Shown piece by piece: positions 25,725 to 53,409 of a DNA stretch of 64,000 nt. A program made the position numbers and the translations under genes. The notes under the pieces were generated by a model. That model was not told where the DNA came from, ran no database searches, and was given only the letters and a program-made list of their open reading frames with translations. This stretch comes from a virus (taxonomy: Duplodnaviria > Caudoviricetes): positions 224,001-288,000 of the IMG/VR virus record IMGVR_UViG_3300022719_000071; one strand, 5' to 3'. The stretch's first letter is position 1. Each line of letters opens with the position of its first letter.

Positions 25725-26834
25725 ATGCAAACATACCCGACCCTGTACTCTCGTGACACCATTGGCAACATCCGTGTCTGGTGGATGGAACGTGATGGTT
25801 TTCACTATCGCACCGCATCTGGTATCAAGGATGGAGAGATCGTGCATTCGGAGTGGCGTCGTGCGTACGTGACGAACCAAGGCAAGGCCAACGAACGTTC
25901 CGCCGAGATCCAAGCCGACGCCGAAATCAAATCGTCATACGACAAGAAGCTACGCATGAAGTACCACGAGGCTGAGGCTGACGTGGACAAGGACAAGTAT
26001 TTCAAGCCGATGCTCGCCAAGGAGTTCGGCAAGGAAACTTCCAAGAAGGGCGTTTCCTTCCCCGTGCACAGCCAACCGAAGCTGGATGGCATTCGTTGCC
26101 TTGTCACCGCCGAGGGTGCATGGTCCCGCACAGGCAAGCCTATTCTGGCGATTCCGCACATCCTGGAGGCCCTGGCTCCACTGTTTGCGAAAGACCCCGA
26201 TCTAGTACTCGACGGCGAGCTGTACAATCACGACCTGAAGGATGACTTTAATACCATCACGTCCGTGGTTCGCAAACTGGAGCCTAATCCCGAGCAGCTT
26301 GCTGATTCAGCACGCCTGATTCAGTATCACGTGTACGACTGTCCGTCCGTGGATGGATCATTTGAAATTCGCATTAATACTCTGGTTGCTCTGCTGATGA
26401 ACATGCCCGAGTGTGTCGTTCTGGTGGACACGCAGTTTGTGTTGGATCAGGAGACTCTGGATTTCTTGTACGCTGAGTACATGAAGAACGGCTACGAGGG
26501 ACAGATGGTGCGCCTGGGTGGAACCTACGAGCAGAAGCGCTCGAAGTTCCTATTGAAGCGCAAAGAGTTCAAGGATGCCGAGTTCGAGATCGTGGAGGTA
26601 AAGTCGGGGCAAGGGAATTGGGAAGGTTACGCCAAGACCCTGACCGTGCGTCTTCCTGACGGCAGAACGTGCGATTCGGGTATGCGTGGTAATCAGCAGT
26701 ACCTGAAGGAAGTACTGGAGAACGCTGACTCCTATGTCGGCAAGCAGGCGACCATTCGCTACCAGGATCTGACTCCGGACGGCAAGCTTAGGTTTCCTGT
26801 TGCCGTGGCGCTGCACCTGGAGGAGCGCTGGTGA
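25725..26834 (+). CDS. ATP-dependent DNA ligase
   Basis: Motif I QPKLDGIRC, VLDGELY, YEGQM, LLKRKE and C-terminal OB fold LRFPV. Confidence 0.92.
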   Translation: MQTYPTLYSRDTIGNIRVWWMERDGFHYRTASGIKDGEIVHSEWRRAYVTNQGKANERSAEIQADAEIKSSYDKKLRMKYHEAEADVDKDKYFKPMLAKEFGKETSKKGVSFPVHSQPKLDGIRCLVTAEGAWSRTGKPILAIPHILEALAPLFAKDPDLVLDGELYNHDLKDDFNTITSVVRKLEPNPEQLADSARLIQYHVYDCPSVDGSFEIRINTLVALLMNMPECVVLVDTQFVLDQETLDFLYAEYMKNGYEGQMVRLGGTYEQKRSKFLLKRKEFKDAEFEIVEVKSGQGNWEGYAKTLTVRLPDGRTCDSGMRGNQQYLKEVLENADSYVGKQATIRYQDLTPDGKLRFPVAVALHLEERW

Positions 26835-27022
26835 GCGAAATGAAGAAGCCTACTGACATCATTGTTGATATTCATCGTGAACTTGAGGCTCTTGCGGAGG
26901 CTGCTGTACAGGAACAGCATGCTGATGCCAGCCGTGTTGATAGCACACTCGACTACTACGAGGATGAATTTGCGAAATGGATCGTAGCCAAATTTAAGAA
27001 GGAAGTTCTAGATGAAAATTAA
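26831..27022 (+). CDS. Hypothetical protein
   Basis: GTGA overlap with the ligase gene. Confidence 0.5.
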   Translation: MSEMKKPTDIIVDIHRELEALAEAAVQEQHADASRVDSTLDYYEDEFAKWIVAKFKKEVLDEN

Positions 27023-27368
27023 GGTCTTTCTGGACGACGTGCGTAAGGAGCCTGTTGGATGGGTACGGGCGCACACGGCCCAGGACGCTATCGAGTGGCT
27101 TCAGGAGAGAGAGGTAAGCCACATCAGCCTGGACCATGACCTGGGTTCAGAAGAGGCTGGTACTGGCTACGACGTGTTGAAGTGGATTGAGAGGGAGGTC
27201 GCCATGGCTGGTTATGAGCCTCCGCACATGACCATTCATTCTGCCAATCCAGTGGGTCGTAAGCGCATGGAGATGGCGATCCAGAGCATCCTGCGTCTGT
27301 ATGAGGTAGCTAACATGGAGTACCAGGAGGATGGATATAGCGGCCCTGGTGAAGATAATTGGGACTAA
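27012..27368 (+). CDS. Cyclic-phosphate-processing receiver domain protein
   Basis: VFLDDVR, ISLDHDLG, TGYDVLKWIE and IHSANPVGRKRM motifs. Confidence 0.8.
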   Translation: MKIKVFLDDVRKEPVGWVRAHTAQDAIEWLQEREVSHISLDHDLGSEEAGTGYDVLKWIEREVAMAGYEPPHMTIHSANPVGRKRMEMAIQSILRLYEVANMEYQEDGYSGPGEDNWD

Positions 27369-27372
27369 CCTC

Positions 27373-27401
27373 TTGACTTCTTGTTGGGACAATGATAAAT
27401 A
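27373..27401 (+). promoter_or_regulatory. Composite promoter TTGACT-N17-TAAATA
   Basis: Same architecture as the 20345 promoter; precedes ncRNA A. Confidence 0.7.
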
Positions 27402-27407
27402 TAGACT

Positions 27408-27628
27408 GTGCATTGCTTAGTAGCGGTCTACCACGGGATACACCGGGAGGAGTGAACGCAGTGTGACCGAGTGTGAAGATTCAGACGGCGACCTGTGATG
27501 TGTCAATTCTAAGCAGGAAAGCCCTCTGACATAAGACGTTTGTATCGGATCACTTGAAGAATTGACTGTAACTCACGGCAGCCAGATAAAGGCAGGTTCG
27601 TGAGCGGTGGGATGGAAGTTCCCGCCTA
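27408..27628 (+). ncRNA. Candidate structured ncRNA A (unassigned)
   Basis: Non-coding; stems CATTGC/GCAGTG, GTAG/CTAC, GTCAATTCT/AGAATTGAC and CTCACG/CGTGAG. Confidence 0.55.
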
Positions 27629-27632
27629 TTAC

Positions 27633-27710
27633 GGTTGTGTAGCTCAATCTGGTTAGAGCACTCCCCTGTCACGGGAAAGGTTGAGGGTTCGAATCCCTTC
27701 ACGACCGCCA
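27633..27710 (+). tRNA. trnD: tRNA-Asp(GUC)
   Basis: Anticodon loop CTGTCAC; TTCGAAT T-loop; CCA end. Confidence 0.9.
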
Positions 27711-27831
27711 ATTTAGAGAAACACATCGCCTGTCTGAGCTTTGTGTGGGGACCATACCACTAGGTTGATAGTGGACAGACCGAGACCACGGGCTTATGTC
27801 ACGTGGGATGCAATGGAAGTTTGCAATTAAT

Positions 27832-28080: not shown

Positions 28081-28188
28081 ATGGTTTTGTTTGTGAAGTT
28101 CGATCACCCGGTGCCTGGGGTTACAAGGCTGATTATGGTTTTGTTTGTGAAATTCGATCACCCGGTGCCTGGGGTTACAAGGCTGATT
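28081..28188. repeat. 54-bp tandem duplication (2 copies, 1 mismatch)
   Basis: ATGGTTTTGTTTGTGAA(G/A)TTCGATCACCCGGTGCCTGGGGTTACAAGGCTGATT twice. Confidence 0.95.
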
Positions 28189-28287
28189 TTTGCTTTAAAA
28201 TAGATATTATTTTATTATAAAAGTCACCGTGACTGCGACTGGATGAGGAAGCCATTTCGCAGATTCCTATGGAAGTTGGGTAAGTTT

Positions 28288-28364: not shown

Positions 28365-28402
28365 CGACATGGCGTAGCTCAGTCTGGTTTCTAGGTGGAT
28401 TA

Positions 28403-29236
28403 TTACGGGAAGATTCCGAATGCACCAGCGTTATAGTGATTTAAAACCTCTGTTGGTGTGAGCACACGATCATAGATAGCAAGTTCATCCACAATACCTT
28501 CTAGTGCTGTAGCAGGCTGTGGTCCCTGCAACGATCCATTGTTATATTCGTTTCCAATCAAACCTCCTGGTGCTTGACCGGAGACTGGTGTGTATTTAAT
28601 ATCACCAGTCTTGGTATCACTGGCGTCGAGTACTCCGTTGACGTAGAGAATACGACTTCCAGAGGTATATGTTCCAACCACGTGATATATTGAGCCTGCC
28701 GGAAAGACATTTCCTTGAAGGTAAGCATTACCTGCGGTGTTTTGGTTAGGACCATCAACGGTACCGAGATAGAAACGGAATGTACCAACGTTAAATCCGT
28801 AAATTAATTTGTATCCAGAGAAATCCAAAGTGCTCCCTGAAGCGTATTGAATGAGCGCTTCGTTCACATTGGGTGGTTTACACCAACATTCGATGGAAAC
28901 CGTCTTGGTTGGTTCCAAGATGGAACTCTGACCAAAGTTCCAATGGTCTGCTAGGGCGTTGTTACCCCCGACTGCTCCATCATTATCTGAAGCACCAGAA
29001 ATTAATCCAGGCTCACCGTAACGCATAGGAGCACCATTCTCAGTAGCTGTGAAACCATTACCCGAAGAATCAGCCAAAGTAGGACCAGAAGATTCACCAG
29101 CACGCCAGTAAGCAATTGGACCATCTTGTAGAATCAGAGATTCATAGGTCATTGGGCCGGATGGACCCAAACTGAGTATACCGCCGTTACTGACAATAAT
29201 TGAAGAACCGTTTTCGATTATAATTATTCCAGACAT
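28403..29236 (-). CDS. LamG/concanavalin A-like lectin domain virion protein
   Basis: PIAYWR.GE..G.T.ADSSG, SIECW, HVVGTY, LYVNG and GIVDELAIYDRVLT motifs; TAAATA on the minus strand upstream of ATG 29236. Confidence 0.85.
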   Translation of the reverse strand: MSGIIIIENGSSIIVSNGGILSLGPSGPMTYESLILQDGPIAYWRAGESSGPTLADSSGNGFTATENGAPMRYGEPGLISGASDNDGAVGGNNALADHWNFGQSSILEPTKTVSIECWCKPPNVNEALIQYASGSTLDFSGYKLIYGFNVGTFRFYLGTVDGPNQNTAGNAYLQGNVFPAGSIYHVVGTYTSGSRILYVNGVLDASDTKTGDIKYTPVSGQAPGGLIGNEYNNGSLQGPQPATALEGIVDELAIYDRVLTPTEVLNHYNAGAFGIFP

Positions 29237-29298
29237 TTGAAATTTCCAAGTTCTTTTGTTATATTTACTGTTCCATCTTAACAACTCGGTCATTAGTC

Positions 29299-29733
29299 AT
29301 GCAAAACCCAGATCCTCATAATCGAGGCATGGAAGCTGTCAAGCTTGCTCATCAATACACCTGGAGACAACAGAAGAGGCTGTTCCCGGTTACTGTTGGC
29401 ATCCTGACATGGATGATGGGATACAGCTTGCTGACGTTCAGCTTTTTCCCTCTGTTTCAACTCAACATCCTTTCGTGGGTAATACTTATGGCCATTATGT
29501 TTTTGACCAGGAAAAAACTGAACGAAGAATTTCTTGAATACTTGAAATGCCAGAGAATTGGAAAAGAGATGGACTGGAAGACGGTCGTCTATAACGGATG
29601 GTTGAACTATGCTGCCACGCTAATCTGCCTGTATTGGGTTTTGATGATCGCTTGGATTTCGTTCTTTATGCCGGAAGGTGGAATCTATGAACTTTACGAG
29701 ATGGATCCCACCAACAAACCCTTGACTTCCTAA
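29299..29733 (+). CDS. Hypothetical membrane protein
   Basis: Three to four hydrophobic segments. Confidence 0.6.
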   Translation: MQNPDPHNRGMEAVKLAHQYTWRQQKRLFPVTVGILTWMMGYSLLTFSFFPLFQLNILSWVILMAIMFLTRKKLNEEFLEYLKCQRIGKEMDWKTVVYNGWLNYAATLICLYWVLMIAWISFFMPEGGIYELYEMDPTNKPLTS

Positions 29734-29752
29734 CCCTAACTACCTATAAATA
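29722..29752 (+). promoter_or_regulatory. Composite promoter TTGACT-N17-TATAAATA
   Basis: Exact architecture match to the other RNA-island promoters. Confidence 0.75.
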
Positions 29753-29948: not shown

Positions 29949-30022
29949 AGCTTAATGGTGGAATGGTTAGACACATCTGGTTTAAAACTAGACACATTGC
30001 AGGTTCGAATCCTGCTTAAGCA
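29949..30022 (+). tRNA. Atypical or degenerate tRNA-Leu(UAA)
   Basis: Leu-type D-arm; TCTGG-TTTAAAA-CTAGA; good T-arm, but 6-bp acceptor, short variable loop and no CCA. Confidence 0.5.
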
Positions 30023-30102
30023 ATTGGATAAATCATCACCGTGACTGCGATGGAGGATACATACGCAGATATCGATGGAAGTTCGATAAAATTGCAGACA
30101 CT

Positions 30103-47254: not shown

Positions 47255-47271
47255 AGAATGGTAAATAATAT

Positions 47272-47508
47272 CATTGCTGTAAACGTGGGCAAAAGCAGGA
47301 GCCTGTCGAAAGCGGGGAATAAACCCTAGTCTATCACGAGCACAGGGTGGCCATGCGGTGCGAAGAACACGTGATGATCCAAGCGGTGAACCCGAAGGGT
47401 AGCGTGACCGACCGAGCGGAGCCGGAAAACTATACGTAAGCCCGATGGCGCTGACGGTAGGCAATCGGTAGAATCGTTGCCGGGAATAGTAGATCCGGTA
47501 CAGCAATG
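47272..47508 (+). ncRNA. Candidate structured ncRNA C (unassigned, about 237 nt)
   Basis: 10-bp terminal stem CATTGCTGTA/TACAGCAATG starting just after TTGACA...TAAATA; GC-rich internal stems; no credible ORF. Confidence 0.65.
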
Positions 47509-47544
47509 TTGCTCCACAGGCATAGATAACGATGTAAAGCCAAT

Positions 47545-48442: not shown

Positions 48443-48528
48443 GGGGTTGTGGTGGAATGGCAGACACGGCGGACTTAAAATCCGTTGACCGCAAGGTCGT
48501 GTGGGTTCGAATCCCTCCAGCCCTACCA
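48443..48528 (+). tRNA. trnL: tRNA-Leu(UAA)
   Basis: GCGGA-CTTAAAA-TCCGT; long variable arm; CCA end. Confidence 0.92.
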
Positions 48529-52515: not shown

Positions 52516-52697
52516 CTACCATGAACATTCGACGCCACAAATTTCATAATAACCGCATTAGCATCAGCTAAGCCACGGCATCGTCTTGCCCTGGCTCAGC
52601 GAAGTCGGGGAAAGCCCTCACCAACCTCCCTCCCAGACTATAAACCCAACATGGTGACCCCTTTCCGGGGGTAACAGAGTGGTGATGACATAACAAT

Positions 52698-53333: not shown

Positions 53334-53409
53334 GGACTCGTAGCTCAATTGGCAGAGCACCCGGCTCTTAACCCGGGGGTTGCAGGATCGTTGCCTGCCG
53401 AGTCCACCA
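53334..53409 (+). tRNA. trnK: tRNA-Lys(CUU), copy 1
   Basis: Loop CTCTTAA; C.C mismatch in the anticodon stem; T-loop ATCGTTG; CCA end. Confidence 0.85.

Follow-up and report, generated by a model that had tools for sequence, protein, structure and literature searches.

What is encoded between the promoter and the first gene of this phage tRNA operon? The stretch 27408-27628 had been put forward as one discrete structured RNA at the head of the operon, a novel phage ncRNA or ribozyme. The window, to which all positions refer unless another record is named, comprises 64,000 nucleotides of DNA corresponding to bases 224001-288000 of a 360,469-bp IMG/VR virus record, and the source genome is a T4-like jumbo phage, because the 360-kb record carries a T4-type Gp23 capsid gene. 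The stretch is flanked by the stop codon of a gene for a 118-aa protein (27012-27368) and by tRNA-Asp(GUC), the first gene of the operon (27633-27710, plus strand, detected by ARAGORN; 65.7 bits with the Rfam tRNA model). The 118-aa protein has a cREC_REC domain (PF20274, E 1e-29). Together with an ATP-dependent ligase encoded upstream of it on the same strand (25725-26834) and a 63-aa ORF it occupies the region 25725-27368, directly 5' of the tRNA operon. In total, the phage record harbours 42 tRNA genes, including one for an amber-suppressor-type tRNA(CUA) elsewhere in the genome (G000:C1:22700-22777). The window also contains a 75-nt tRNA of class-I size with the anticodon UAA (29949-30023, 52 bits), in addition to the normal 86-nt tRNA-Leu(UAA) at 48443-48528, and a tRNA with an 8-nt anticodon loop (53334-53409, anticodon read as CUUA), which adjoins tRNA-Phe and tRNA-Lys.

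Upstream of the stretch, TTGACT (27373-27378) is followed after 17 nt by TAAATA (27396-27401), as read from the sequence. In this composite promoter (27373-27401, plus strand), a -35 element of the sigma-70 type is joined to a TAAATA box resembling that of T4 late promoters, and the stretch starts 7 nt downstream of the -10 element, at 27408, in agreement with the original prediction. The pattern TTGAC-N16-21-TA[AT]ATA has 23 matches in the genome compared to 3.3 in shuffled sequences, and for 13 of the 23 a tRNA encoded on the same strand follows within less than 300 nt. The promoter is repeated at 29722-29752, ahead of the next tRNA group. We regard TTGACT-N17-TAAATA as a genuine, recurrent promoter of this phage. 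No terminator-like site was found within 27368-27632, and therefore read-through from the upstream cREC and ligase genes would also be possible. The region from the putative start site to the base before tRNA-Asp (27408-27632, about 225 nt, plus strand), which corresponds to the predicted "RNA A", thus has a promoter on one side and, on the other, the first tRNA of a cluster on the same strand, and contains neither an ORF nor a terminator. This is the position of a pre-tRNA leader.

The stretch is non-coding, as had been claimed: there is no ORF of at least 30 aa on its plus strand, no plausible small ORF and no credible ORF in any frame. The failure to recognise a known RNA family was also borne out, since in the Rfam scan of the stretch, which covered among others 6S, tmRNA and RNase P, only tRNAs matched, at the gathering score as well as at E≤10. 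Inside the stretch, the best non-tRNA match had 18 bits (threshold 70 bits, E 4.3). Models of hammerhead, HDV-like, twister, pistol, hatchet and other ribozymes gave no match in the stretch at E≤10, and the proposal of a ribozyme could not be upheld. The gene context makes it nevertheless worthwhile to weigh this proposal. The 2',3'-cyclic-phosphate product of a self-cleaving ribozyme in the leader would fit the cREC and ligase genes located directly upstream on the same strand, since Iyer et al. predict that 2',3'-cyclic phosphate ends are resolved by cRec, and point out its linkage to RNA ligases in jumbo phages (PMC7824862). Moreover, ribozymes linked to phage tRNAs do exist: theta ribozymes are minimal HDV-like ribozymes beside phage tRNAs (PMC10879173). 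Like them, the element in the window is physically linked to tRNA genes, but theta ribozymes abut the tRNA, with the cleavage site within 5 nt of it (PMC10879173), while the leader lies upstream and has no HDV-like match. A conserved catalytic core is not seen in the leader, because it has no homologues. Further, cREC genes are found inside or beside tRNA clusters in other, unrelated phage contigs too (L108, L163, L096 and G001), which do not have this leader. We consider a self-cleaving ribozyme in the leader highly improbable.

A second class of non-coding RNAs comes to mind because the phage encodes a Ro60/TROVE protein while Rfam finds no YrlA RNA in it: the leader could be the Y-RNA-like partner of this protein. 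YrlA RNAs are characterized by a GNCGAA motif, a terminal stem and a T-arm-like hairpin (PMC4201824). The YrlA model (RF02553) gave in the phage only tandem-tRNA artefacts with at most 24 bits versus a threshold of 69 bits. The leader resembles YrlA-type Y RNAs in that it is non-coding, falls into the size range of 100-250 nt and belongs to a phage whose genome encodes Ro60, and its GACCGA recalls GGUCCGA. On the other hand, it has no T-arm and no GNCGAA in a terminal stem, and it is not near the Ro gene. A much better candidate is located directly upstream of the Ro60/TROVE gene and in the same direction (L168:1073-1364, corresponding to G000:C1:305968-306259, outside the window). There, a promoter, a predicted ORF-free transcript of about 250 nt and an intrinsic terminator are found. 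The sequence GUCGAAG agrees with the YrlA motif GNCGAA-N0-1-G, AGACCU and AGGUCU form a terminal stem, and GAUGG/CCAUC is the stem of a perfect T-arm-like hairpin with the loop UUCGAUU. We take this element for a probable divergent Y RNA, which is missed by the Rfam YrlA model. That the leader itself would play the role of a Y RNA is hardly credible.

Does the leader fold as a unit? The minimum free energy (MFE) of the whole 221-nt stretch is -70.8 kcal/mol compared to -65.2 ± 4.3 kcal/mol in shuffled sequences (z -1.30), and 18 of 200 shuffled sequences fold equally well. As one RNA, the stretch has a fold that is indistinguishable from that of shuffled sequence. When the 5' 159 nt were folded together, the z-score was -0.8. 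In comparison to dinucleotide shuffles, clearly higher stability was detected only for the 3' part of about 60-62 nt, which consists of two hairpins separated by 1 nt (X and Y, see below). With a z-score of -3.9, this X-Y module is the sole part of the leader with a significant fold.

The remaining helices of the proposed structure can be drawn, but most of them do not stand out. CATTGC (27411-27416) is able to pair with GCAGTG (27459-27464), and the resulting P1 domain (27411-27464, plus strand), with two small hairpins enclosed, is part of the MFE fold. Further downstream, GTCAATTCT (27502-27510) pairs perfectly with AGAATTGAC (27558-27566). This 9-bp stem closes a domain (27502-27566, plus strand) which encloses a small hairpin with the loop GACGU, and which is present in a single copy and has no homologue. 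The MFE and the centroid structures of the whole stretch conflict on the 9-bp stem, which is present in the latter and absent from the former. The z-scores of -1.8 for the P1 domain and -2.2 for the 9-bp-stem domain were obtained with boundaries set on the stems, which favours them. A perfect stem of at least 9 bp was found in 80 of 2000 mononucleotide shuffles and in 15 of 500 dinucleotide shuffles (3-4%). Thus, the stem and its hairpin are present in the sequence as described but not beyond chance, and after reading 64 kb such a stem is unremarkable. The proposed pseudoknot between GAACG and ACGUU involves 4-5 complementary bases, which is not separable from chance. The nominally low z-scores of the two domains and the p value of approximately 0.03-0.04 for the 9-bp stem are the points that speak against reading this part of the leader as unconstrained spacer.

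Homologues of the stretch were sought in several collections. BLASTN against 50,697 GenBank phages, T4 included, gave no match, and no homologue was found by BLASTN and a motif scan at 82 IMG/VR loci around ligase and cREC homologues. Pattern scans of IMG/VR for ATGGAAGTT followed by a tRNA D-arm and for the promoter with the first leader bases had 0 matches each. A scan of JGI metagenomes with a cREC alignment revealed 80 loci, all at most 59% identical, and neither leader nor hairpin was present in any of them. The locus is present in three other assemblies, but these are 100% identical and therefore uninformative. Two close relatives were also encountered: G002 (major capsid protein 94%), a fragment that does not include the leader region, and a 43-kb JGI contig with 96% amino acid identity in the neighbouring 154-aa protein.

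The only homologue found, a partial one, is a 1.2-kb Logan contig (L087), which is 77% identical in the cREC gene. It retains the promoter in the form AACCTnTTGAC-N16-GATAnATA and the first approximately 25 transcribed bases, and since it ends 90 nt into its leader, all leader comparisons with it concern two sequences and the first 90 nt. The only helix kept by RNAalifold between the window and L087 is a hairpin at the 5' end (27409-27430, plus strand; UG.AUUGC/GCGGU.UA), which is an alternative to P1. Two of its 7 pairs are changed on both sides (GU to CG and GC to AU) and one is changed from UG to CG; in L087 an 8-bp version (CCAUCAC/GUGGUGG) is formed locally. P1 is contradicted by this only available comparison, because in L087 its 3' strand is not complementary and its 5' strand pairs locally instead. 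The pairing suggested for P1 therefore exists in the window, but it is not conserved. Bacterial and phage transcripts can be protected from 5'-end-dependent decay by 5'-terminal stem-loops of the ompA type. The hairpin in the window resembles these stabilisers in that it starts within 2-3 nt of the putative 5' end and shows compensatory changes in L087; in contrast to them, its role is suggested by its position only. By analogy, it may serve as a stabiliser of the transcript.

Among complete relatives G001 is the nearest (376 kb; its capsid protein is 84% identical), and its cluster, which follows the promoter TTGACG-N17-TAAATA, likewise has the order Asp-Asp-Pro-Pro-Pro. Between this promoter and the first tRNA-Asp lies a different leader of 118 nt, which is unalignable to that in the window. 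No homologue of the leader was found in G001 and no TGGAAGT hairpin in its tRNA cluster. Because an unalignable leader of 118 nt occupies the same position, the length class persists while the sequence does not. Long leaders recur in this phage group and, as judged from these two genomes, their sequences turn over. G001 has a promoter-proximal leader element of its own, which is approximately 85 nt long, folds into a long hairpin (z -2.3) and shows no sequence relationship with the leader in the window. Its three copies are located before tRNA-Asp (G001:C1:255984-256073, minus strand), before tRNA-Ala (G001:C1:316783-316870, minus strand) and at one other site (G001:C1:188023-188095, plus strand).

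Taken together, these data do not support one discrete structured RNA: the fold of the whole is no better than that of shuffles, P1 is lost in L087 and the leader of G001 is unrelated. The original prediction had named missing covariation in homologues as grounds for abandoning it, and this is indeed what we found, except for the 5' hairpin and the 3' X-Y module. What stands is a non-coding stretch which belongs to no Rfam family, follows directly on a strong, recurrent phage promoter and ends in a hairpin under selection.

A related possibility is that the leader, or its 5' 160-200 nt, is released by RNase P as a stable small RNA with a trans-acting or structural role. In line with this, promoter-proximal tRNAs of the phage fall into two classes. 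Six of them (Val, Gly-GCC, Glu, Cys, Arg-CCU and Met) are preceded by leaders of 8-16 nt, while leaders of 180-280 nt are found at Asp, the 75-nt tRNA(UAA), Thr-CGU, Arg-ACG and Gly-UCC, with a clear small ORF only in that of Gly-UCC. Because six promoter-proximal tRNAs manage with 8-16 nt, a leader of 231 nt, as at tRNA-Asp, is not required for tRNA expression and may have a role of its own. The T4-like nature of the phage (Gp23) fits this view, since the T4 tRNA region yields two small RNAs of unknown role (PMC3014915). These T4 RNAs, RNAC and RNAD (species 1 and 2 RNAs), are non-coding, co-transcribed with the tRNA cluster and have no assigned function (PMC3014915). Like them, the leader is a non-coding segment in the tRNA cluster of a T4-type phage. 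However, the T4 RNAs are stable species by demonstration, while the leader is known from its sequence alone and has no sequence similarity to any GenBank phage including T4; further, it is promoter-proximal, and the module at its 3' end is found before four tRNAs in all. Once released, a fragment would be stabilised by the 5' hairpin, and the GC content of the leader (51%) is higher than that of the genome (46.7%). Against a stable-RNA unit speak the missing fold signal (whole-stretch z -1.30), the lack of conservation in G001 and the loss of P1 in L087. We regard a stable small RNA as possible, though doubtful.

Two further long ORF-free leaders behind the same promoter type were noticed in the window, at 47268-47544 (277 nt, before tRNA-Thr(CGU)) and at 52516-52697 (182 nt, before tRNA-Arg(ACG)); neither has an Rfam match at the gathering score. 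The 198-nt leader of tRNA-Gly(UCC), located outside the window (G000:C1:32235-32432, minus strand), encodes a 43-aa hydrophobic peptide preceded by a ribosome-binding site, followed by three hairpins.

At the other extreme, the stretch could be decayed tRNA genes or rearrangement debris with no function even as a leader element. The tRNA-Asp/tRNA-Pro cluster indeed bears signs of rearrangement, in the form of a truncated tRNA, a convergent gene that was inserted and a tandem repeat. These fit with unconstrained spacer DNA, and in relatives no constraint is seen on the middle of the leader. A paralogue of this middle part was not found elsewhere in the phage genome, and comparison of the leader with the other spacers revealed no similarity beyond the TGGAAGT loop itself. 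However, the leader does not resemble a tRNA: its best local alignment to the 42 phage tRNAs scored 24, compared to a null mean of 24.8, and no tRNA model matched in the stretch at E≤10. A tRNA pseudogene is thus not supported. Since conservation or covariation is seen in the 5' hairpin and in the X-Y module, we find it unlikely that the whole stretch is debris. As to the rearrangements themselves, the truncated tRNA is a 5' fragment, GGCGTAGCTCAGTCTGGTT, at 28372-28392, immediately after tRNA-Pro(CGG). A convergent gene for a LamG-domain protein (28403-29293, minus strand) has its stop codon directly at this fragment, and we therefore suggest that insertion of the LamG gene broke the tRNA array. 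In the spacer between tRNA-Asp and tRNA-Pro, a 54-nt unit is duplicated head-to-tail with 98% identity (28081-28188).

Only the last approximately 60 bases of the stretch show evidence of selected structure. Hairpin X (27572-27604, plus strand; CTCACG paired with CGTGAG) is the first half of the module, and hairpin Y (27606-27626, plus strand), located 6 nt before tRNA-Asp, is the second. The latter has a 7-bp stem (GGTGGGA/TCCCGCC) and the loop TGGAAGT. It is the hairpin in which the stretch had been said to end; it is present and under selection, but it is not private to the leader, being one of four copies (27606-27626, 27809-27825, 28266-28280 and 30070-30088). These are located 6-14 nt before tRNA-Asp, the second tRNA-Asp, tRNA-Pro(CGG) and tRNA-Pro(UGG), and each is preceded by an X hairpin. 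The X equivalents are found at 27786-27806 (CCACG/CGTGG, second Asp) and at 28233-28262 and 30045-30068 (CTGCG/CGCAG, Pro copies), and both strands of the stem are different in the Asp copies and in the Pro copies.

Over the four Y copies all nine bases of the loop region, A-UGGAAGU-U, are invariant, while the stems vary with pairing maintained: 91.7% of the cells are paired and five of six pairs are changed on both sides. None of 500 shuffles reached the observed covariation score and no slid register came close to it. Covariation was detected among the leader helices for hairpin Y only, in the comparison of its four paralogous copies. The two Pro leaders are clear duplicates of each other; they share the loop and the flanks, but the Y stem has been exchanged. 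In the window ATGGAAGTT was counted 6 times versus 0.78 expected. The genome contains about 95 TGGAAGT sites, and only four of them have a stem of at least 4 bp closed by the loop-bordering A-U pair; a fifth site on the minus strand, far from tRNAs (genome position 88514), has a 5-bp stem that does not include the A-U closing pair. No other non-T-loop hairpin recurs upstream of the tRNAs of the phage, and in the 360 kb hairpin Y is confined to these four tRNAs. Replacement of a stem around a constant loop is the signature expected of a loop that is read by a trans-acting partner, with the stem being a mere scaffold. Thus, the UGGAAGU loop is most likely a recognition site for a trans-acting factor, and this factor would probably be a protein. 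Among the small proteins encoded nearby, Pfam and PHROGs scans revealed no RNA-binding candidate and assigned no family.

A protein to consider is CsrA. The CsrA sites have the core ANGGA presented in a hairpin loop, usually a hexaloop closed by C-G. The hairpin loops with GGA (A-UGGAAGU-U fits ANGGANG), together with other GGA motifs of the leader, could titrate a host regulator of the CsrA/RsmA type, which would make the leader a sponge RNA. The likeness to CsrA/RsmA hairpins lies in the GGA in a hairpin loop and in multiple copies per transcript: the loop fits the ANGGA core and occurs in four exact copies, in addition to GGA-rich X loops in the Pro leaders. In the window, however, the loop has 7 nt and is closed by A-U, its nine invariant bases are far beyond the need of CsrA, and a sponge would not need copies placed strictly 6-14 nt from tRNA 5' ends. 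Furthermore, the leader shows no obvious excess of GGA (about 7 sites counted by hand versus about 5 estimated from base composition), and no CsrA gene was found in the phage. A CsrA sponge is in our opinion distinctly unlikely.

Based on these observations, we consider it moderately likely that the stretch is the long 5' leader of a polycistronic pre-tRNA, and that it is a mosaic and not one folded RNA. The pre-tRNA would consist of leader, tRNA-Asp, spacer, tRNA-Asp, spacer and tRNA-Pro, transcribed from the composite phage promoter with a start near 27408. Three parts can be distinguished in the leader. First, the hairpin within 2 nt of the 5' end may shield the transcript from 5'-end-dependent decay, as the ompA-type structures do. 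It would be followed by about 140 nt of lineage-specific spacer, in which P1 and the 9-bp stem are under no detectable constraint. Finally, the X-Y module would present A-UGGAAGU-U 6-14 nt upstream of the RNase P site at four tRNAs (Asp twice, Pro twice). RNase P cleavage at 27632/27633 would free the leader, and the spacers would likewise be released at each tRNA 5' end. A trans-acting factor reading the loop could time, protect or promote the processing or the stability of these precursors.

It is tempting to go one step further and to combine the module with the RNA-repair genes upstream. In this scheme the leader would be a discrete RNA of the phage, either stable or able to process itself, and the products of the adjacent cREC and ligase genes would act on its ends. 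A T-loop pentanucleotide has U at position 1 and A at position 5. The same two bases occupy the corresponding positions of the loop UGGAAGU, which is T-loop-like in this respect, and the hairpin could act in cis by docking on the neighbouring pre-tRNA or by recruiting a factor to it, thereby controlling the maturation of tRNA-Asp and tRNA-Pro during infection. We judge this combined scheme to be very unlikely.

The simpler reading as a pre-tRNA leader makes the result mostly deflationary for "RNA A". The leader is a new example of a phage tRNA-operon leader, and there is no support for a new ribozyme or ncRNA class; on the present evidence it should not be counted as one. The split of promoter-proximal tRNAs into leaders of 8-16 nt and of 180-280 nt echoes the unexplained RNAC and RNAD of T4. 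Last but not least, the X-Y module is lineage-specific and marks exactly four tRNAs, and it is thus a testable candidate for a phage-specific pre-tRNA recognition signal.
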